A stretch of DNA of 64,000 nt from a virus. Positions within the stretch are counted from its first letter, which is position 1. Each line of letters begins with the position of its first letter. The notes under the pieces are model-generated. The model ran no database searches. It worked only from the letters and a program-made list of their open reading frames with translations, and had not been told where the DNA came from. Location: the IMG/VR virus record IMGVR_UViG_3300010430_000004, positions 1 to 64,000 of that record, one strand, 5' to 3'. Of this stretch, positions 4,169 to 55,209 are shown one piece after another. The position numbers were made by a program, and so were the translations under genes.

Positions 4169-5193
4169 TATCTAACCCCTATTCCTACTCCACCTTTTTC
4201 AGAAAATCCATTATTAATTTTCTCTTTGTGGTTGAGCATTTCCTCTACTACTTCACTATAAGTTTTGCCAGTTAAACGGCTACGAATTACTATTTCTTTA
4301 ATATGGGCTATTGAGAATTTTCCATTTTCTACTTGACTACTTCTTAGAGAAGCTTTCTCATCTTCATCTAATTCACGCTTTCCAATAAATTCTGCTAATT
4401 TAATTCTTTCTTCAGCACTTGGAGGTGGAAGTTTAATCATCTCATCAAAACGTCCAGGTCTATCAGCTAAGGCGCTCAGCAGATTTGCTGGATAGTTAGT
4501 AGTAGCTATAGTAAAGGTTGGAACCTTGAAAGTAACAGAATTACCATCAAGAAGAGCAAGAAGACTAGAATCTACTGATCTGTTACCTGAAAATTCTTGT
4601 TCTCCACCGCCAATGTCTTCAATGATAAAAATTAAACGACTGCATTCTGGAGTAAACTCTGTACCAATGCTAAAGAAGGACTCAACACTACTTGACTTAA
4701 TTGCTGAAGTATTCCAATTAATTACAACAGTATTGGGGTCTTCTTTATAAAAATCTTCACAAAGAGAGTTAATTGCACTAGATTTGCCAAATCCAGGGTC
4801 AGAATATAGGAGAATGTTTCTGACCTTTGGCTGTCCCAATTCTTCATAGATTTCAAGACTATTAAAGAATTGAGTGGCTCTGCTTTTGATACTTTTTGTA
4901 TTATCTATAGATTCCAATAAGTTATGTTTTTTAAGAGTAAAGGGCTCAAGATCAACACCAGCCATTGTGGAGACCATTGTAAAAATTCCAGGCTTAATTT
5001 TGAGCTTTTTTCGCTCTTTCTTTTTCTTACCTTCTACATATTTAAATTGAGCAACATGAGTCTCTGTCTGAATAGACAAATCACTAGTGCTTAGTTCAGT
5101 CTTGGTACCGTTAATGATATCTTCGAGTAGAGTTACTTCTAAAACCTTAAAATGGTTGTCCTCTCTAGGGCCTTTTACTTCATCACTGCTCAT
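4168..5193 (-). CDS. AAA+ ATPase
   Basis: Walker A variant SDPGFGKS, Walker B IIEDI, TTNYP, ALADRPGRFD second region of homology. Confidence 0.9.
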   Translation of the reverse strand: MSSDEVKGPREDNHFKVLEVTLLEDIINGTKTELSTSDLSIQTETHVAQFKYVEGKKKKERKKLKIKPGIFTMVSTMAGVDLEPFTLKKHNLLESIDNTKSIKSRATQFFNSLEIYEELGQPKVRNILLYSDPGFGKSSAINSLCEDFYKEDPNTVVINWNTSAIKSSSVESFFSIGTEFTPECSRLIFIIEDIGGGEQEFSGNRSVDSSLLALLDGNSVTFKVPTFTIATTNYPANLLSALADRPGRFDEMIKLPPPSAEERIKLAEFIGKRELDEDEKASLRSSQVENGKFSIAHIKEIVIRSRLTGKTYSEVVEEMLNHKEKINNGFSEKGGVGIGVR

Positions 5194-5250: not shown

Positions 5251-5775
5251 ATGAAATTACAAGAAAAGCTTACTATAGCCTTTGGATCACCAGAACTGGC
5301 TAAAGAATTAATTGAACGTTTTGAGAAAAATGACCTAGTTGGTCTAGACGAAGCTGCTCTAGCTAGTGCTCTAGGAAATACCGATATGGCTAGAAAAATC
5401 ATGGAAAGTGCAGATATTGAAGCTGCTTAATTGGCCAACTGCCTATCCAGTCCTGAACTTGCTGAAGAGTTACTTAAGCTAAGAAAGCCTAAGAAAGCTG
5501 CCAAGAAAAAGAAAAAGAAGGAAACTGAAGAAGAAAAAGAAGCTAAAGCTGCTGCAAAGGCCGCTGCTAAAGCTGAAGCTGACGCTAAAAAAGCTGAAGC
5601 CGCTGCCAAGAAAAAGGCCGAAAAAGAAGCTAAAGCTGCTGAAAAGAAAGCTAAAGCTGCTGAAAAGGCTTTAAAGACTTTAGATGCTGATGGCGATGGT
5701 GACGTAGATGATAAAGATCTAAGTATGCTTGAAAAAGCCGCTAAAAAGATGAAAAAGATAGTCTCTAAAGACTAA
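5251..5775 (+). pseudogene. late gene with one in-frame TAA (5428-5430): helical repeats, Lys/Ala-rich tract, EF-hand-like DADGDGDVDDKDL
   Basis: The frame from ATG 5251 continues through the TAA into ORF 5431..5775; the repeat unit LxxxxGSPELAxEL lies on both sides of the stop. Confidence 0.6.
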
Positions 5776-6368
5776 TCGTGCCTAGTCTCTACTAATGTAG
5801 TTACGAAGTGCGTATAATTGCCTAACTTATATTCAAGCTGCAAGCTATTTTCTTGCAGCTTTTCTTTTATTTGATTCATAACAGACCATACAAAATAGAA
5901 ATTCTTAGGCATAATATCCACTGCTTGGGCTCTAAATATTCCAGTACAACTTAGTCTCATTCGTCCAGACATATCTTTGTCTAGGTAAAAATGCAATTCT
6001 CTACAGCATTTGGCACTGTCTGTATCTTCGTGGTAAAAAGGGCCACCAACAGATATGATTGCTCTTTTAGATTTGGGAAACTCAGATAAACATTCAGCGG
6101 TTATGCTAATTTTTTTATCCATCCAAGGCGAGTAGTTTCCTTGTTCTCCACCTTGATATTCACTAAATAGTTTCATTTCTTCTTTAGTTGGTTTAATATT
6201 AGTGTTTTTTTTAGCATAGGCTACTAAAGTAGCTTTATCAAAAAGCTCAGTTTCAACTGTCATTTTCTCTTCATTAACATCTACTATAGTAGATGTATAA
6301 TTTCTTATAGGAAAACTAGAGTCATTTAAATAACCAATAAGAGTTTTAGCACAATTATAAAACCTCAT
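5772..6368 (-). CDS. divergent thymidylate synthase / hydroxymethylase-fold protein
   Basis: PKSKRAIIS, KCCRELHF, LSCTGIFRAQ and PKN align with TS motifs (P.SRR.I.S, PC...QF, RS.D, P.N). Confidence 0.7.
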   Translation of the reverse strand: MRFYNCAKTLIGYLNDSSFPIRNYTSTIVDVNEEKMTVETELFDKATLVAYAKKNTNIKPTKEEMKLFSEYQGGEQGNYSPWMDKKISITAECLSEFPKSKRAIISVGGPFYHEDTDSAKCCRELHFYLDKDMSGRMRLSCTGIFRAQAVDIMPKNFYFVWSVMNQIKEKLQENSLQLEYKLGNYTHFVTTLVETRHD

Positions 6369-7243
6369 TAGAAAACAGCGCCCTCTTCAGCAATTTTAGC
6401 ATATTCTCTTGGCCATTCTTCTTTATAAAATTTAAGGAGCCTTTGTTTAGCCTGCTCTGTAGTAATTTCATTAACAAAACCTGGACTGTCTAAACTTATT
6501 AATTTTCTAGTTTTTTCACTAAACGGTTCTAGGCCAATGAAATGGCAAGGATCAACGTCAAAACTTCTAATGCCTACAAAAATACGTGGCTTATCAAGAG
6601 GACGTACAAAATGTTCCAGTCTAATATTGTCGAAAATAATAAGGCTGCCTTTTTCATGGGTTGGGTGAATTTCAGTATCTGTTTTAGTGTCATAAAAACT
6701 AGTACCTTGAACATCACCAGTATTGTTGTTTTCAACATTAAAGCCGAAAATATACTGATTATATAGGGCCTCTTTAACTTTAAAAGCTTTTTCATCAGTT
6801 AGTTCATAAGACATATAATTTCCATCTCTATGCCTACGAAGAAATTTGGAAGCCCCAATATTCTCTGATTGACTATACATTTGCCAGTTTACCATTTTTC
6901 TATTATTAGATGGCACTTCATAACCAAGTAGTTTGCTTAGTACAGCGTCATGGAAACGCATCATATCTTTTAAAACAATGCCTTTGATTTTTACATTAGG
7001 AAGCTCGTTTTCTTGTCCCTCTTCAATATACATATGAGCATGGCTTTCACGAGTGTCGCTTTTCATAGAGGGATATACAGCGTTTGTTTTTAAATTTTCA
7101 GGAGTATAGTTAGCTTCGTTGTTCATTGGAATTTCTACTTTAATGGCTATCATTTCTCCAGGAGTAAGGAAGTTTTCAACCTTATAATACCCTTTTTCTT
7201 CAAGTGATTTTTTCATTTCTTCAATATTAATTCTACTAAGCAT
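6368..7243 (-). CDS. 2OG-Fe(II) oxygenase superfamily protein
   Basis: HRD...GTSFY...GSLIIFDN..LEH.V...PR: HxD..H triad plus distal Arg. Confidence 0.8.
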   Translation of the reverse strand: MLSRINIEEMKKSLEEKGYYKVENFLTPGEMIAIKVEIPMNNEANYTPENLKTNAVYPSMKSDTRESHAHMYIEEGQENELPNVKIKGIVLKDMMRFHDAVLSKLLGYEVPSNNRKMVNWQMYSQSENIGASKFLRRHRDGNYMSYELTDEKAFKVKEALYNQYIFGFNVENNNTGDVQGTSFYDTKTDTEIHPTHEKGSLIIFDNIRLEHFVRPLDKPRIFVGIRSFDVDPCHFIGLEPFSEKTRKLISLDSPGFVNEITTEQAKQRLLKFYKEEWPREYAKIAEEGAVF

Positions 7244-7251
7244 TGTTTCTC

Positions 7252-7407
7252 CTAATATATTGCAAATATTCTCTTACTGTGCAGGTTTGTCCATTTTCCT
7301 AACCAACGAGCAGTGTAAAAGTGACAGGCCAATTTTGGAAAGTCACAATGTCCTAATTGATCTTTTTGATGAAAATGCAGGATACCAAAAATAATTGGTA
7401 TTTTCAT
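7252..7407 (-). CDS. small hypothetical protein (51 aa; not in ORF track)
   Basis: ATG overlaps the kinase stop (TAATG) and fills the gap to the oxygenase RBS. Confidence 0.5.
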   Translation of the reverse strand: MKIPIIFGILHFHQKDQLGHCDFPKLACHFYTARWLGKWTNLHSKRIFAIY

Positions 7408-8123
7408 TATGCTTCCTTTGCTACTGAGTCCGAAATAGAAATATCATATTTTTCTAGAACTTTAGCCACTTTTTCTTGGACCTCAAGAATAGAGTCATCT
7501 TCAGAAACTTCAACAACTTCCATTGTAAGATTTCTAAGAACATCATAGTCTTTTAATTGCTTTAAAAAGCTAATAACACGTTCTTGATTATCTAAGTTTT
7601 CAAGACGCTCAACAATAGGTTCACCAGTAGTTTCTGCACGTTTTCTAATACGCTCAAGTGGCCACTTAACGTCATCTGGAACCATTACAATATTTAATAC
7701 TCCAAAATCTTGATTGAGAATTTCTTCAGCATGGATAACTTTGGCATGGCACTCTGTAATTTGTTCAAGAGTCATACCTTTAGCAAGAGCATAAACTAGG
7801 TGACTAGCAATGGCTCTATCTTTCAATACCACTCCGTTTGGATTGTCTTCTAGAAATTTGCGAGCAATTTTAATACCTTCAAGATCAGTAAGAGCAAAGA
7901 GTTGTTCCTCTAATTCCACAGAATCCACTGGAAACTTGTCATGTAAAAGTACAGTTCTTAATGCCAGTTGATAGTCATCGGTTTTATCTCCACCGAGAAG
8001 TCTAGTTGAATGGATGTTTGCACCTTTAGCTTGAAGAGCCATTTTTAGTTGATTTAATTGTGTGCTTTTGCCCAAACCATCAGATCCATCAAAGCTGACA
8101 AACTTAATACTTTTCTTGCTCAT
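7407..8123 (-). CDS. tmk: thymidylate (dNMP) kinase
   Basis: FVSFDGSDGLGKSTQ P-loop, DR..S..VY motif, ERLE lid. Confidence 0.85.
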   Translation of the reverse strand: MSKKSIKFVSFDGSDGLGKSTQLNQLKMALQAKGANIHSTRLLGGDKTDDYQLALRTVLLHDKFPVDSVELEEQLFALTDLEGIKIARKFLEDNPNGVVLKDRAIASHLVYALAKGMTLEQITECHAKVIHAEEILNQDFGVLNIVMVPDDVKWPLERIRKRAETTGEPIVERLENLDNQERVISFLKQLKDYDVLRNLTMEVVEVSEDDSILEVQEKVAKVLEKYDISISDSVAKEA

Positions 8124-10562: not shown

Positions 10563-10844
10563 ATGAAACTCAAATATCCAAGTGATTTGGAAAAAGCCCA
10601 AAAACAAACTCCAACAGCAGAGTCGGTTCACCAAGATCATATGAAAACCTCTGACAGTATGAAAGAGCATTCTTATAAGGGACACAAGATTCATACTTTT
10701 GATAAAAATGGCGATCACACATTTTCAGTAAATGGAAAAGCTGGACACTATTCTGGTGCTCAATATGAAGATGCTTGGAGCAACGATCATAAGGGAGCTT
10801 TAAAAAACGCAAAAAAACATATTAATAAAAAATTAGGAAAGTAA
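10563..10844 (+). CDS. putative internal head protein (MKLKY..DLEK leader)
   Basis: N-terminus shared with the 17447, 52321 and 54852-55151 genes. Confidence 0.6.
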   Translation: MKLKYPSDLEKAQKQTPTAESVHQDHMKTSDSMKEHSYKGHKIHTFDKNGDHTFSVNGKAGHYSGAQYEDAWSNDHKGALKNAKKHINKKLGK

Positions 10845-12171: not shown

Positions 12172-13050
12172 ATGAAAGACTACCGTTCTATTTGCAAAAC
12201 TATTTTAGGTGACGATATATTTGAAACTCTTCAAAAGTTTGAAATATATAAGCCTAATACAAATACTGCACTAGATCCTAGAGAACTAGAAATAGCAATG
12301 CAAGTAGTACCTAGAACTATTCTTTCTTATGTTAGCAACTGCGTAGCTGGCATGAAAGCTGGAGAAGTAAGAGAATGTTCTATACCTTTTGGCGAAAATG
12401 CTAATTGGACAATAAATAAACACGGCCCAGATGATTATAACGGAGAAATTAGAGAAAATAATAAAGTAAAATATGACTTTAAATATAGAAGTATTCCAGG
12501 AATGGCAATGCTTCTTATGACTAGTTTTGAGCTTTATGATTTTAATGATTTAGAAGAGAAAAAGGAAACCGCTCCACAACCAGACACTTGCAAAATGCAA
12601 GAACTTATTGATGAGAGATTAAAGATTTATGACCTTATTAATAGTGTAGTTTCTAATAAGATGGAAGTTAGGGAAGCTAGAGAGCAATTTATCAATGAAA
12701 AACTTAACAGAATCATTGCTCAATTAGAGGTACAAAAGACTATGGAAGATAATGCCAATCAAAAGAAAGACCTTAAACTTAAACGATTCCTTGAAGCCAA
12801 GGCTAAACCAGAGCAAAAGGAATTTGAAATTTCTTTTGAAAAATCTGAAAAAGCTATATGTGGTGATTGTGGATCTTCTTTATTTGATTCTGCTGGGTGG
12901 AAGTCTGGTTGTATCTGTTCAGGAGATGACCGGAATAAAAAGGTTTGGTTGAAGAAAACAGAAGGTGGAGTAAAGCTTAAGTTTTCTAAGGGTTGGGATG
13001 AAGAGAATGTTCAGATGTTGCTTCAAAGTTTGAAAAAGGTGAGAAAATAA
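12172..13050 (+). CDS. hypothetical protein with C-terminal Zn ribbon
   Basis: CGDC...CIC after an FEKS motif. Confidence 0.65.
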   Translation: MKDYRSICKTILGDDIFETLQKFEIYKPNTNTALDPRELEIAMQVVPRTILSYVSNCVAGMKAGEVRECSIPFGENANWTINKHGPDDYNGEIRENNKVKYDFKYRSIPGMAMLLMTSFELYDFNDLEEKKETAPQPDTCKMQELIDERLKIYDLINSVVSNKMEVREAREQFINEKLNRIIAQLEVQKTMEDNANQKKDLKLKRFLEAKAKPEQKEFEISFEKSEKAICGDCGSSLFDSAGWKSGCICSGDDRNKKVWLKKTEGGVKLKFSKGWDEENVQMLLQSLKKVRK

Positions 13051-14657
13051 TGTCAAAAAAAGATTATAGTTATATAAAAAATGCCAATATTCACCACACA
13101 GTTGATGATGTTGATCACAAGGGACATAAAATAACAACAAAAGTAATGTCTCACAAAAATGGTGGAACATACGCTCATGCCTTTATCAATGGAAAACCCC
13201 ATGGCAATGCTGAAATGAACACCGAAACTGCTCATGGCAAAGCTAGAGATCATATAGATAAGAAAACAAGTGTTAATAAATCTGAAGGTATTGACGCTCA
13301 GAATGAACAAAACCACAAAGAAATGTACAATGAAAATCCTAAACCTAGAAGCGTTACTAAGTTCGTGGCCTTTAATGCTAATAATGTTTCTTCTAAATTA
13401 GTAGACCACATCAATGCTAACGACCATGTTGGTCTTTCGCAAGCTTCTCAAAACTTACATGATGCTGCTGATGTTATTTCTAGTTGGGTAGAAAATGCTA
13501 GAGGTACAGTGGTATCACGAGCAGCTGACGAAATCATAGCTATGGTTCCAGAAGAGGCTCTTGGCTCTATTGAAGAAGTTAAAGCAAACTATAAACAACT
13601 CTCTGGACATGACCTTACTTGTGGTATTGGTGACTCTCTTGCCGATGCTGCAAACTCTCTTATTGGAAACAAAAATGGAGATGAAGCTCTTGAAGAAAAT
13701 GACGAAAATGACCAAATTGATGAAATAGATCAAGAAATGGACGAAGTAGCTGAAGATATTGCCAGTGATGGCTCTGAAGATGTTGATCAAGACGGCGTTG
13801 CTGATTCTGATGAAGAACATGGTGAGATTGATCCTGAAATGGACGATGCTAATGCTGATGGTGAAGTGGACCATGAAGAAGCTATGCAAGATGAGCAAGC
13901 TCCACCTGAAGGTGATGTTGCTGAAGAAGATTTTGTTGAAGGTGAAGCTGCTGCTTCTGAAGTAGAAGATCAAGCCGGAGAAGAAGCCGCTGAAGAATAT
14001 TCTGAAGAAGTACCCGAAATGGATGATACTCAAGAAGTTCCTGAGCATGAAGAAGGATTAAATCCTGAAGAAAAACAAATACACGATGCTACTGAGTCTG
14101 AAACTGACGAGCAAGAAATTGCTGAAGAACAAGGCTCTGAAATTGCTCAAAGAGATGAACAGGATTCTGATATGATTGAAGAGAATATGGAACAAGAGCA
14201 AGAAATGGTAGATCCAGCTCAAGAAGAAATGCCACCTGAAGGTGAAGAAATGGCAGAGGGCAACCTAGAGCCAGAAGAGCAAGAGCTTTTTGACCTATTG
14301 TCTCAAGATCTTAACGATGAACCTGAAAGCGCCACTTTACATGACGCTAAGGCTAGAATTGTTGAAACCTTAAATAACCTTAAAGCAAATAAAGATAGTA
14401 TTGAAGCTATGAAGAGTCACGACCCTGAAGCTTATGGTACTCTTATTGAATTTATTAGAAGTATGATTGATATGGCCAAACAAGTAAGATCTGAGGAGGG
14501 TGCTGAAGATATGGAAGCTGCTCCTGAAGACGATACTGAAGGGGCCTCTAGTGAAATGCCACCTGAAGGTGAAGAAATGGCAATGCCTGAAGAAACTGAA
14601 TCTGATGACGATGAGTCTGAAGAGGAGGAAGAAGAGGTAAAAAAGCCGCAGGGGTAG
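13050..14657 (+). CDS. large acidic protein with degenerate mCpol-like domain; -1 frameshift at its 3' end
   Basis: aa ~104-208 follow the mCpol pattern with DGD->NAN and GGD->AAD; E/D-rich linker; A_AAA_AAG four codons before the stop. Confidence 0.75.
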   Translation: MSKKDYSYIKNANIHHTVDDVDHKGHKITTKVMSHKNGGTYAHAFINGKPHGNAEMNTETAHGKARDHIDKKTSVNKSEGIDAQNEQNHKEMYNENPKPRSVTKFVAFNANNVSSKLVDHINANDHVGLSQASQNLHDAADVISSWVENARGTVVSRAADEIIAMVPEEALGSIEEVKANYKQLSGHDLTCGIGDSLADAANSLIGNKNGDEALEENDENDQIDEIDQEMDEVAEDIASDGSEDVDQDGVADSDEEHGEIDPEMDDANADGEVDHEEAMQDEQAPPEGDVAEEDFVEGEAAASEVEDQAGEEAAEEYSEEVPEMDDTQEVPEHEEGLNPEEKQIHDATESETDEQEIAEEQGSEIAQRDEQDSDMIEENMEQEQEMVDPAQEEMPPEGEEMAEGNLEPEEQELFDLLSQDLNDEPESATLHDAKARIVETLNNLKANKDSIEAMKSHDPEAYGTLIEFIRSMIDMAKQVRSEEGAEDMEAAPEDDTEGASSEMPPEGEEMAMPEETESDDDESEEEEEEVKKPQG

Positions 14658-14678
14658 GTAGCAAGTCTCTCCCTACCC
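14623..14678 (+). other. programmed -1 ribosomal frameshift signal
   Basis: AGGAGG (14623-28), 10 nt, A AAA AAG (14639-45, in frame), hairpin GGGTAGG/CCTACCC (14652-78). Confidence 0.85.
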
Positions 14679-14878
14679 AGGCTACCAAACACGTTAGACG
14701 TAAACAAATGCCATACGGTGCAACCAATGCTAAGGGTAAACTTAAGTATAAAGGTTCGCAAGGAAAACGTAGAAGCATAGATGCTAAACTTGGTATGCAC
14801 ATTGATGGGGCAACTGGAGATCTTGACCACGGAAAAGCTAGACCGAGGGGCAAAAAGAAACCGTCAGAAGGCGTATAA
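14645..14878 (+). CDS. -1 transframe extension, 77 aa basic peptide (not in ORF track)
   Basis: Open -1 frame AAGVGSKSLPTQ...KKKPSEGV ending in a TAA that overlaps the next ATG (TAATG at 14876-80). Confidence 0.8.
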   Translation, partial: AAGVGSKSLPTQATKHVRRKQMPYGATNAKGKLKYKGSQGKRRSIDAKLGMHIDGATGDLDHGKARPRGKKKPSEGV

Positions 14879-15636
14879 TGTCTGGAAAATATTTAGACCT
14901 AAATATAGATATTGCCGAATTAACTAAAGAGTTTGAAGGTATAAAATCAGAAGTAGCTGAAGCTGTTAGAAATTCAGCTGAAACTTTAGCTACCATGACT
15001 CACGCCAAGGTAAATGAGCTTGCTACTGATAAACTAAACACTCGTGCTAAACAATATAAAGAAAACGTTACTTTCGAAGAAATCCAAAAAGGAGTATGGG
15101 TGATTACCCTTTTAGAGCCTGCTATGTGGATAGAAGAAGGCCAATCCTCTTACGATATGAAAGAGACCCATCTTAGAAAAAATGCTAAAGTTGGTAAAGA
15201 TGGCAAACGCTACAAACAAATACCTTTTGATAAAGCCAAAGCACCTAGTCAACAATCAGAAAGTGCAAATAAGCTAACTGGACAAATCAAACAACATCTT
15301 AGAGCTAACAAAATACCTTTCAGAAAAATAGAAACTAATGAACATGGTTCACCACGGTTAGGTCTTTTGCATAAATTTACAGTAGATTCTGACAAACCTA
15401 GTGCTAGGTCTAAATCACCTAGCCTTCAAAACGTATCTATTTATCAAAGCAAAGATAGCACTGGCAATGTTCGTAGAGATATAATGACTTTTAGAACTAT
15501 TAGTGACAATTCAGAAAATTGGCAACATCCAGGAAATGATGCTGTGAATATATTCGATGAAGCTTATAAATGGGCTGAAAGAGAATGGGAAACCAAAATA
15601 TTGCCTGATATTCTGGACTCTTTTGATAAAAAATAA
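14878..15636 (+). CDS. putative neck/tail-completion protein
   Basis: Position; WIEEG..YDMK and FRTIS..WQHPG pattern typical of myophage neck genes. Confidence 0.55.
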   Translation: MSGKYLDLNIDIAELTKEFEGIKSEVAEAVRNSAETLATMTHAKVNELATDKLNTRAKQYKENVTFEEIQKGVWVITLLEPAMWIEEGQSSYDMKETHLRKNAKVGKDGKRYKQIPFDKAKAPSQQSESANKLTGQIKQHLRANKIPFRKIETNEHGSPRLGLLHKFTVDSDKPSARSKSPSLQNVSIYQSKDSTGNVRRDIMTFRTISDNSENWQHPGNDAVNIFDEAYKWAEREWETKILPDILDSFDKK

Positions 15637-16674: not shown

Positions 16675-17376
16675 ATGTCTAAGATTTATACCCCACAAGA
16701 AGTGGTTCAAGAGATTACAAAAAGCTTAAAATCTAAGCTTAAAGAATATGCTAGACTTAAAGGCAAGAAAGCTGTTGAAGACCTTGAAGATAATGATCAT
16801 TTGCCAGAATTAGAAACAACTCCTAGCCCTGATAAAGAGATTCTTACAAAAGCCAAAATAGACACTGTTAAATATGGAAAAGAAAAAGGTGGAGATTCTT
16901 CTATCGCTGCTAGAGCAATGAAACACAATGATAGACAAGATAGAGCCCATGATCTTGGACAAGCTGATAAGAAAAGATTTGAAACATCTGCTGAAAGACT
17001 CAAATCTAAAAAAATAAGCAATGCTGCTAAACCTCTAGACAAATCTAACTATGGTCCCAAAGGTGGAGGCCAATATTCTCAAGCAGATAATGAACGTAGA
17101 AAAAATAGCATTCATGGTAATGTAGGTGATATAAGTAGTGAATATTCTTCAGTAAAAATGAAAACTGGAGCCAATGCTTCTGGTGGACAAGGTAAAACTA
17201 AGTTCAATGAAGATATGAAAAAACTTAAAGCTAAAAATAAAAAGCAACCAGTTACCTCTATGAAAGACATGAGTCCTGAAAAGAAGGCAAAACTAAAAGA
17301 ACTATATGAAACTAAAGTAAAAAAGAGCGAAAAACTCAAAAACTTGTTGACTAAAATTAAAGAAAAAGGTAATTAA
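16675..17376 (+). CDS. Lys-rich putative internal head protein
   Basis: Low complexity; ITKS, LTKA, LDKS, VKKS motifs. Confidence 0.6.
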   Translation: MSKIYTPQEVVQEITKSLKSKLKEYARLKGKKAVEDLEDNDHLPELETTPSPDKEILTKAKIDTVKYGKEKGGDSSIAARAMKHNDRQDRAHDLGQADKKRFETSAERLKSKKISNAAKPLDKSNYGPKGGGQYSQADNERRKNSIHGNVGDISSEYSSVKMKTGANASGGQGKTKFNEDMKKLKAKNKKQPVTSMKDMSPEKKAKLKELYETKVKKSEKLKNLLTKIKEKGN

Positions 17377-17417
17377 TTGAAATTATTAGAGATTTTTATT
17401 TGCGAAGTTTGTAGTAA

Positions 17418-17426
17418 TAATCTTTA
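17418..17426 (+). promoter_or_regulatory. late promoter motif
   Basis: TAATCTTTA. Confidence 0.7.
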
Positions 17427-17446
17427 TTTAAATATCGGAGTTTAAT

Positions 17447-18274
17447 ATGAAACTTAAATACGGAAGTGACCTTGAAAAGAAGGCACCAAATTCAAGCTTT
17501 GAATACGACCATCCGCAACACGGAAAGTTGGAAGTAAATGCTCGCGTTGCTCCTAATAGTGGCAAAGTAAAGCTAAAAAGCGTAGGTGTTAAGGACGATA
17601 TCCATATTGGGGTAAAAGAGGCTGGTATTTCTAAAGAGCACAAGAAAGCTATGAGAGAAAAAGCTTCAAAAACTGGTATAACAAAGTGTGGTGATATGAG
17701 TACTAAAAAGACAGAAAAATCTGAAAAAATGGAAAAATCTGAAAGAGATGTAGCTGTTGCTATTCTTGATAAAGTTAGAGAACTTGCTAAGGGCCATAAC
17801 AGCTCCCATGTTGTTGAAGAAGGTAAAAAAATTACTCCTTCTGATTCAGAGCGTGTATCTGAATCCAAAGTTGACGGTTCTGAGTCTGATGATGTTGAAA
17901 CTACTCATGCAGATGACAAAAAGAACAGCGAAGATTCTAATAGAACTGAGCGTTTTGAAGACCAACGTCATCCTGAAGTACGTGGATTAGATAAAGATAA
18001 GACTAAAAAGAAAAAAGATTCTGAAGACGATGATGAAGATGAAGACAGCAAAGATAAGTCTAAGAATATGGAAAAGAATGAAAAAGTAGCTCAAGCTATG
18101 GTTGATAAATCTAAAGAAATTTCTGCTAAGAAACAAAAAGACCAAAAAGCTAAAGAAGCTAAAAATATGAAGATTGTTGACAAGGTTATTAAAGAACACC
18201 CTGTAACAAAATCTGAAAAACCTCTTGTCGCTTTTCTTAAAAAAAGAGAAGCTAAAATAAAAGGTGATCAGTAA
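17447..18274 (+). CDS. charged putative internal head protein (MKLKY..DLEK leader)
   Basis: Shared leader; MEKS, LAKG, MEKN, VTKS motifs. Confidence 0.6.
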   Translation: MKLKYGSDLEKKAPNSSFEYDHPQHGKLEVNARVAPNSGKVKLKSVGVKDDIHIGVKEAGISKEHKKAMREKASKTGITKCGDMSTKKTEKSEKMEKSERDVAVAILDKVRELAKGHNSSHVVEEGKKITPSDSERVSESKVDGSESDDVETTHADDKKNSEDSNRTERFEDQRHPEVRGLDKDKTKKKKDSEDDDEDEDSKDKSKNMEKNEKVAQAMVDKSKEISAKKQKDQKAKEAKNMKIVDKVIKEHPVTKSEKPLVAFLKKREAKIKGDQ

Positions 18275-54048: not shown

Positions 54049-54275
54049 TGAAAGATAAATTAAAAGAAGTAGAAAAAAATATCAAAGAATTAGTAGATAA
54101 AGCTGATTTGGAAATAGAAGAACAAATAGACAAATATTACAATGGTGCCGGATACTCTCACAATGTTATCAGCCTGATACTTAGCAATTTAGCCAAAAAG
54201 GTAGGAACTCATTACGCTAATGATTTGGTTCGTAAGCATGAGCTAGAAGAGATCTTTGGAATACCGGAGGCATGA
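54048..54275 (+). CDS. hypothetical protein
   Basis: TAATG coupling. Confidence 0.6.
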   Translation: MKDKLKEVEKNIKELVDKADLEIEEQIDKYYNGAGYSHNVISLILSNLAKKVGTHYANDLVRKHELEEIFGIPEA

Positions 54276-54850
54276 TGAATAAAATAATTAAATTTGTATG
54301 CGATCAGTTGGTAAAATGGTGCATTAAAAATAATAGAGTTTATAAAATTACAGGTGGGCCAGCAGGAGAAACTGTTTATCTTGTAAGGTATATTGTCCAC
54401 AAAAGTAAATTTGGTTGCATATATATACATAGATTTATGAGAAGTGACGCTGATGACCCACATGATCATCCTTGGAATTTTTGGACATACGTAGTCTCAG
54501 GTGGATATACTGAAATTTTTTACGATAAAACAAAACAAGTTACTGAAGCAGGCACTAGATCTGATGGTATAAGGTATTCTATTTTCCATGCTCTGTGGGT
54601 GGAAAAGTTCAATAAAAGAAAACCAGGTTCTATTGCTTATCGCAAAGCTACTGATATTCATCAGGTTGTTGTTGATAAATCCAGAAATATGGATGAAATC
54701 GAAGAAGCCCCCTATACAATATGTTTAATGGGGCCTAGACGAAGAGATTGGGGTTTTTGGCTGAAACCTTTGAAAGGTACTGGTTTTTTAGATTGGAGAG
54801 AATATTTATCAATAACTCCAGAAGATGAGAGAATTGAAGGGTCTGAGTAA
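54272..54850 (+). CDS. phage cupin-fold protein
   Basis: IH.F..SD.D.PHDHPW.F...V.SGGY.E ... H.V ... WGF. Confidence 0.8.
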   Translation: MMNKIIKFVCDQLVKWCIKNNRVYKITGGPAGETVYLVRYIVHKSKFGCIYIHRFMRSDADDPHDHPWNFWTYVVSGGYTEIFYDKTKQVTEAGTRSDGIRYSIFHALWVEKFNKRKPGSIAYRKATDIHQVVVDKSRNMDEIEEAPYTICLMGPRRRDWGFWLKPLKGTGFLDWREYLSITPEDERIEGSE

Positions 54851-54851
54851 A

Positions 54852-55151
54852 TTACTTTTTTTCGTATAATCCACTAAAGAAAGCGCCAAGATCATCACCG
54901 TATGTTCTGTTTTCTTCAGCATCTTGGGGTACACAAATAGCAGGGTCCATATCAGGTGTTTCAGGAACCCACTCGGTTTTTCTTATAATATTACAGTCAT
55001 TATTTTCTTGTTTTTTCCAGATTTTCCTATGAATTATACCATTTATAGACATTCTTTGAGGTACAAACTTAGGCGCAACTGCTTCTTCATAAGCTTTTTG
55101 CTCATTTTTCTTTATTTGTTCCATTAATTCGCCAGGATATAACAATTTCAT
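54852..55151 (-). CDS. late protein with MKLLYPGEL leader (99 aa)
   Basis: True start 55151, directly after TAATCTTAAATAT (55152-64, minus strand). Confidence 0.7.
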   Translation of the reverse strand: MKLLYPGELMEQIKKNEQKAYEEAVAPKFVPQRMSINGIIHRKIWKKQENNDCNIIRKTEWVPETPDMDPAICVPQDAEENRTYGDDLGAFFSGLYEKK

Positions 55152-55186
55152 ATATTTAAGATTATTACAAATATGGCAATTATCAA

Positions 55187-55194
55187 AATCTTTA
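55187..55194 (+). promoter_or_regulatory. late promoter motif
   Basis: AATCTTTA before the tape measure gene. Confidence 0.7.
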
Positions 55195-55209
55195 ATATTT
55201 GAGGTATTG

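Follow-up and report, generated by a model that had tools for sequence, protein, structure and literature searches.

The DNA analysed here, which we call the window, is a stretch of 64,000 nucleotides at the start of a phage record of 168.5 kb. The phage is a relative of Myxococcus phage Mx1, with 52% identity in the capsid protein, 39% in the sheath protein and 32% in the product of the gene at 14878-15636. A scaffold-like gene and the major capsid protein gene occupy 602-2760 (capsid gene, 1387-2760). The subject of this analysis, which we call the carrier gene (13050-14657), sits between genes matching virion structural families and the sheath gene; these features, like the signals and the next gene described below, are on the plus strand. 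The zero-frame carrier product is 535 aa long, has a pI of 4.05 and begins with a variable N-terminal segment, which is followed by an mCpol-like domain and an acidic linker, and then by a conserved helical domain (residues 425-482; 14322-14495) and an acidic tail. The gene that follows (14878-15636) encodes 252 aa and belongs to PHROG 16819, with function unassigned. The N-terminal segment of the carrier (13050-13280) weakly resembles a small His/Lys-rich protein encoded at 10563-10844 (14 of 28 residues identical, E 0.13). Elsewhere in the genome, at 163545-165317 (6046-7818 of locus L171, minus strand), a phage-encoded GroEL-like chaperonin adjoins the portal gene.

The 3′ end of the carrier gene, GTA AAA AAG CCG CAG GGG TAG, contains the elements of a -1 frameshift signal, all of them at the positions given in the original prediction: an internal Shine-Dalgarno (SD) sequence, AGGAGG (14623-14628); a gap of 10 nt; a slippery heptamer, A_AAA_AAG (14639-14645), which is in frame with the gene and encodes Lys-Lys; a gap of 6 nt; and a hairpin with a 7-bp stem (14652-14658 paired with 14672-14678), the candidate stimulator. 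The zero-frame stop codon (TAG, 14655-14657) lies within the hairpin, whose pairing involves the Leu-Pro codons of the domain encoded in the -1 frame. That frame (14645-14878) stays open for 77 codons, as had been noted, and its TAA overlaps the ATG of the next gene by one base. The 77-aa extension has a pI of 10.7 and 19 Lys and Arg residues, and would bring the transframe product to 609 aa, with a conserved module at approximately 14666-14839. Gene callers list a 56-aa protein beginning at an internal ATG (14708-14710) that lies inside this module; the observation that this ATG lacks a ribosome binding site is correct, there being no SD before it.

Taken singly, these elements are not exceptional in this phage: in-frame A_AAA_AAG occurs 19 times in its 235 called genes, and the window hairpin by itself is marginal (z -1.67 against dinucleotide shuffles and -1.9 against synonymous recoding). 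The combination of a heptamer, an SD, a strong stem and a long -1 frame is found at one site among the 172 gene ends of the 168.5-kb phage, and conservation in relatives places the combined signal far above chance. A pseudoknot was considered, in which loop bases would pair with 14681-14686 to give a second stem, and was rejected: this pairing is not kept in L002, L006 or L012. Within the frameshift site we detected no promoter or terminator beyond chance, and a search of this phage for a phage-encoded tRNA-Lys returned none.

We used the next gene as bait to fetch approximately 165 loci, and a profile of the extension matched 149 of them, representing 105 distinct sequences. The domain is in the -1 frame in 75 of these homologues (68 with a long upstream frame and 7 on short contigs), fused to the upstream frame in 15, probably fused in 4 and in the +1/-2 frame in 6; a further 5 are of insufficient length for classification. 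The loci are related, so these and the following homologue counts are not independent and overstate the support. The Mx1 protein WNM70340 is also fused in frame and is additional to the 15. The helical domain is found in every confirmed upstream partner of the extension, and both upstream domains are present in 54 of 73 long library hits.

The reading first proposed for the site, a dnaX-type -1 frameshift that adds a hidden extension, is strongly supported by conservation in these relatives, and the slippery site, singled out then as the place to look, is present as a perfect heptamer in 74 of the 75 -1 homologues, mostly as C_CCA_AAR or A_AAA_AAG. When only the 68 with a long upstream frame are counted, a perfect heptamer falls within the last 20 codons in 67, compared to 19.2 expected under synonymous recoding and a rate of 11% at other gene ends. 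These 67 heptamers are C_CCA_AAG (27), which is also the shift site of CsoS2, A_AAA_AAG (26), C_CCA_AAA (10) and others (4). Across the tree the heptamer switches among C_CCA_AAR, A_AAA_AAG and G_GGA_AAG, and the layout around it stays constant. One homologue, L146 (874-930), has the -1 layout with a hairpin and only C_CCC_CAG in place of a perfect heptamer, possibly a slip in the P site only.

The flanking elements show the same constancy of position. With a folding window started at +5, the stem begins 5-7 nt past the heptamer in 64 of 67 homologues, at a median z of -2.6. Hairpin sequences vary among relatives, yet the stem often involves the Leu-Pro codons at the start of the domain, and there is covariation: the wobble base of the Leu codon is paired in 25 of 29 cases through three pair types, and L013 differs from the window by two double changes in the stem. 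Upstream, SD-like pairing is stronger than in a synonymous recoding null (-6.3 vs -4.3 kcal/mol), and 48 of 60 SD-like cores lie 9-14 nt before the heptamer with a peak at 10-13 nt, with the caveat that in-frame Glu and Gly codons of the acidic tail supply SD-like words. A spacing of 9-14 nt is that of -1 shifts and a spacing of 3 nt that of +1 shifts (PMC5009743). Substitutions among close relatives fall mostly at third positions of the -1 frame, including in the stretch before the ATG. Comparison of the sequences thus establishes the signal and its conservation, selection on coding in the -1 frame and naturally occurring in-frame fusions.

The annotation at this site suggests a different arrangement, in which the extension would be a separate small gene read from ATG 14708 or by reinitiation after the TAG, with a heptamer that arose from a Lys-rich tail; gene callers do place their 56-aa protein there, and A_AAA_AAG is common in the genome. 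The original prediction had named independent initiation at 14708 as what would overturn it, and the homologues speak against such a start. The near-invariant residues L9 (90/91), T14 (85/91) and H16 (86/91) precede the ATG, which corresponds to residue 22, and Met is found at that position in only 16 of 91. L006, which is 78% identical, has Ala there, in 40 of 67 homologues none of the start codons ATG, GTG and TTG occurs ahead of the Leu-Pro codons, and in-frame fusions exist. With conserved residues ahead of the ATG and its Met rarely kept, independent initiation is very unlikely.

We give a similarly minimal probability to the offset between the two frames being a broken gene, an assembly error in the A run or transcriptional slippage. 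There are six A in a row at the window site, fused relatives exist, and one of them, L140, differs from a frameshifting relative by one extra A. Against this, the same offset recurs in 75 distinct homologues, 37 of 67 use C_CCA_AAR, which lacks a long run, slippage has been described for runs of about nine (PMC5009743), and the spacing of the SD and stem fits a ribosome.

The carrier message thus very probably yields two proteins by programmed -1 ribosomal frameshifting, a conclusion drawn from comparative evidence, and we consider it likely that the shift is of the dnaX/IS type and gives a long form with a basic module beside a short form. In such a mechanism the hairpin would stall the ribosome on A_AAA_AAG as the anti-SD pairs with AGGAGG, the two Lys-tRNAs would each slip back one base, and the TAG four codons further would be bypassed to give the 609-aa protein ending in the conserved basic module, alongside the 535-aa form. 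The -1 shift of E. coli dnaX and of the IS3 family uses A_AAA_AAG with an SD 9-14 nt upstream and a stem-loop downstream (PMC5009743), and the window has the same heptamer with the SD at 10 nt and the stem at 6 nt. It differs in that the shift gives the longer product, a reversal noted for some dnaX genes (PMC5009743), and in that it is in a phage morphogenesis gene. Most relatives of the carrier also depart from dnaX and IS3 in using C_CCA_AAR, and six in having a likely -2 site.

In these six relatives (L061, L062, L066, L089, L107 and L108) the domain is in the +1/-2 frame, and all of them have CC_CCA_CAG at a place homologous to the -1 site (e.g. approximately 5771-5830 of L108), flanked by an SD-like core at a distance of 9-12 nt on the 5′ side and by a stem 6 nt away on the 3′ side. 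CC_CCA_CAG allows both tRNAs to re-pair two bases back (CCA to CCC and CAG to CAC). Because this re-pairing is possible and the SD lies at the distance expected for a backward shift, we favour, with reasonable confidence, reading CC_CCA_CAG in these genes as a putative -2 tandem-slip site. Phage Mu and a few RNA viruses provide known examples of -2 shifts (PMC5009743), and we found no description of CC_CCA_CAG as a -2 site in the literature searched.

The tail chaperones gpG/gpGT of phage lambda and the -2 shift of Mu are examples of a family-wide shift near a gene end whose direction varies (PMC5009743, PMC10885494), and the carrier family is similar in having the shift near the gene end, in different directions among relatives, and in the ratio of two forms. 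It differs in location: the carrier lies among head and neck genes, approximately 40 kb from the presumed tape-measure gene and upstream of the sheath gene (18561) and a tube-like gene (20721), rather than between the tube and tape-measure genes. The carrier locus also has strong stimulators on both sides of the heptamer and many in-frame fusions, and the carrier matches no tail chaperone family in PHROG or Pfam. The gene that does precede the presumed tape measure (54272-55207) has no clear G/GT shift; a U_UUU_UUA at 54784 opens only 12 codons.

Frameshifts also extend the capsid or tube proteins of T7, T3, Lactobacillus phage A2 and the Listeria phages PSA and A118 (PMC5009743). As in those phages, a C-terminal domain is placed on a share of a structural protein, and fused and shifted forms coexist; the carrier, however, is not a capsid or tube protein, and its module, which is confined to one family, has neither an Ig-like fold nor any other known one. 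The Mx1 protein WNM70340.1 (OR576727.2), annotated as hypothetical, occupies the same gene position and ends in the same C-terminal module, but is fused in frame with no frameshift and has an extra insert bounded by K-sites. We found no paper describing a frameshift in the carrier gene in a search that reached a minority of subscription papers. To our knowledge, almost all annotated phage frameshifts are in tail chaperones or in capsid and tube extensions. The type of the predicted signal described here is known, whereas the gene family, mostly of uncultured phages, is new: a family-wide frameshift in another kind of gene, whose product gene callers miss or shorten. The approximately 75 natural versions of the cassette differ in heptamer and have unrelated hairpins at constant spacing; with the recurrent fusions and the probable -2 form, they make a ready test set for the rules of bacterial frameshifting.

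The original prediction had described the added sequence as a Lys/Arg-rich peptide. It is more than a generic basic peptide: the extension is a conserved module with near-invariant Leu, Thr, His and Gly residues, and relatives have it fused in frame. The AlphaFold model of the module has a confident core (mean pLDDT 82.5) with a beta-hairpin, long loops and little secondary structure, and this scarcity of secondary structure suggests that the module may fold on a partner. Searches with the model returned no structural match and no Ig-like fold, a PDB sequence search with the module profile gave nothing below E 0.02, family searches gave no match suggesting a function (the Atlas returned unnamed clusters at 0.86), and the phage genome was found to have no second copy. 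The PBCV basic adaptor domain was considered and set aside, having matched 1 of 91 members, at E 0.047, and nothing in the phage genome; it is a lead only. Our best guess, at clearly less than an even chance, is that the module may be a docking or nucleic-acid-binding tag.

In a quick, midpoint-rooted tree, the fused clade that contains Mx1 is sister to 95 mostly frameshifting rows, and the fused state requires at least four changes. The long form is produced in every arrangement, and it is the short form that can disappear. Since the module is conserved and many relatives, Mx1 among them, have it as an in-frame fusion, the shift is more likely to produce a shortened protein without this ancestral domain than to append new cargo. 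The extension is probably the ancestral C-terminus, with the long form the ancestral and necessary one and the shift setting the share of molecules that have the module; an ancestral fusion is tentative because the tree is quick and midpoint-rooted. Some individual fusions seem to have arisen from small indels or stop loss: L140 (approximately 5770-5810) resembles a frameshifting relative plus one extra A, L041 (approximately 4745-4790) resembles the -2 type with the stop lost, and L034 (approximately 2120-2170, minus-strand count) is a further case, although some of these may be assembly errors.

The extension's stop overlaps or abuts the start of the next gene in most relatives, the one-base overlap being the commonest spacing (29 loci). 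The shift could on this basis serve mainly for translational coupling, with shifted ribosomes ending on the start of gene 14878 and setting its low level. We judge this quite improbable: the module is conserved as a protein, and fused forms abut the same next gene. In addition, an inversion at 5256-7454 of L002 (seen also in L003-L005, L090 and L091), bounded by homing-endonuclease-like genes, flips the next gene away from the extension, yet the signal and domain are retained.

SPO1-like phage capsids mature by cleavage after Lys; we found no papers on Lys-specific capsid maturation in these phages. The original prediction had also placed a maturation-like site at the transframe junction (14637-14647), where the zero frame reads V-K-K-P and the -1 shift gives V-K-K-A. 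Of this proposal the motif itself, [LMIV]-x-K-[AS], is real in this phage family. It is defined by L-V-K-A at residues 8-11 of the capsid protein and by five copies in the scaffold-like gene; L8 and K10 of the capsid are invariant in 45 proteins, L-x-K-A is at residues 8-11 in all 40 distinct N-termini, and scaffolds have 259 copies compared to 43 expected. The preference at P3 in scaffolds is for Leu (4.9x), Met, Ile and then Val (1.6x), so that V-K-K/A, with the weakest P3 residue, is a weak but allowed match, and Pro is at P2 in none of the 259 scaffold sites. V-K-K-A is retained in all five closest forms, whereas a usable site at the junction is found in only 8 of 67 homologues, and Pro is at P2 in 8 of the 14 strict junction matches.

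Sites near the junction are more frequent: 19 homologues have one a few residues downstream, compared to 5.9 expected, and 26 of 67 have one in either place. A site precedes the module in 25 of 43 deep fused forms (6.7 expected) and, at shifting positions, in several -1 clades; across 35 fused forms the Lys immediately preceding the module shows conservation of at least 90%, and one large near subclade has no excess of the motif (3/20 vs 2.2 expected). A site tends to precede the module where it can be placed, and the shift is not a device for creating one. A second site, V-N-K-S (residues 75-78, 13272-13283), closes the variable N-terminal segment of the carrier, and L002, L007 and L014 have a K-site in a like place. 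That a K-site closes this segment in all four clade members that have it suggests that the carrier protein may be a protease substrate.

Because such sites bound variable segments and often precede the module, we infer a head-assembly or inner-head protein whose [LMIV]-x-K-[ASG] sites would be cleaved by the prohead protease. That the carrier is a virion or procapsid protein is fairly probable; release by the prohead protease at this particular junction is plausible, at slightly less than an even chance. The module would then act as its docking or nucleic-acid-binding tag until maturation and be cut off, here at VKK/A. Mx1 is a cultured member of the family, and the location and cleavage of its protein are therefore directly testable; we found no paper on the Mx1 proteome, with most subscription papers beyond the reach of the search.

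Cleavage is the point on which a further reading departs: it accepts the shift but has the long form escape cutting, K-A being a by-product of the AAG codon, and takes the module as an anchor (to the procapsid, neck or DNA) such that the ratio of anchored to free protein matters. Its precedent is the carboxysome protein CsoS2A/B, for which a -1 shift gives two products that differ in whether they have the C-terminal part (PMC5009743). CsoS2 is like the carrier in being a disordered, scaffold-like protein of two lengths, and is unlike it in that the shift truncates and uses no SD, and in sharing no homology. The scarcity of the junction motif (8/67), the subclade without a site and the fact that the heptamer forces a Lys followed by a codon starting with G agree with an uncut anchor; the recurrence of sites just before the module in deep fused forms and several -1 clades, and V-K-K-A in all five closest forms, argue for cutting. 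We hold the uncut anchor to be a serious possibility, somewhat short of an even chance.

Two minor observations also concern processing. A 585-aa protein (genome 166758-168515; 9259-11016 of L171, minus strand) has a prohead-protease-like N-terminus as an Atlas lead, with no Pfam or PHROG hit. Low-complexity proteins encoded at 16675-18274 of the window and at 158749-159330 of the genome have three or four maturation motifs each and are likely further processed head proteins.

The mCpol-like palm domain of the carrier (residues 106-203; 13365-13658) matches Pfam PF18182 at E 5.5e-7, over the cut-off, and the fused relative P0245 matches Panoptes mCpol (PDB 9mnr) by Foldseek. The domain thus links the carrier to Panoptes OptS/mCpol (PMC12657230), by Pfam for its own N-terminal domain and by fold for a relative. 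The differences are that the domain here is phage-encoded, is fused to a long carrier, has no effector found beside it (no membrane effector by Pfam among the flanking genes scanned) and belongs to a clade in which a catalytic motif is lost; in this phage the first motif reads N-A-N for D-G-D, and A-A-D-E stands for G-G-D-E. Both catalytic motifs are intact in 23 of 49 scored -1 forms, and together with the fold match this would be consistent with a shift that sets how much active cyclase is loaded in virions or delivered within the cell. This phage and its clade have lost the first motif yet keep the shift, so cyclase dose cannot explain the shift here, and fused forms exist both with and without the motifs. 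Overall this explanation is improbable, though it may apply in other lineages.

If the module is a packaging tag, it would explain the loading of enzymes such as the mCpol-like cyclase. As a doubtful but possible generalization to Mx1-like myoviruses, the locus would be a dial that sets the module-bearing share through fusion, a -1 shift on three heptamers or a -2 shift on CC_CCA_CAG, and docked, variable cargo (cyclase, acetyltransferase or small basic domains) would enter the procapsid and be freed by the prohead protease. Among the library hits, the fused member P0202 has a GNAT acetyltransferase domain after the helical domain and ahead of the module, an instance of variable cargo.
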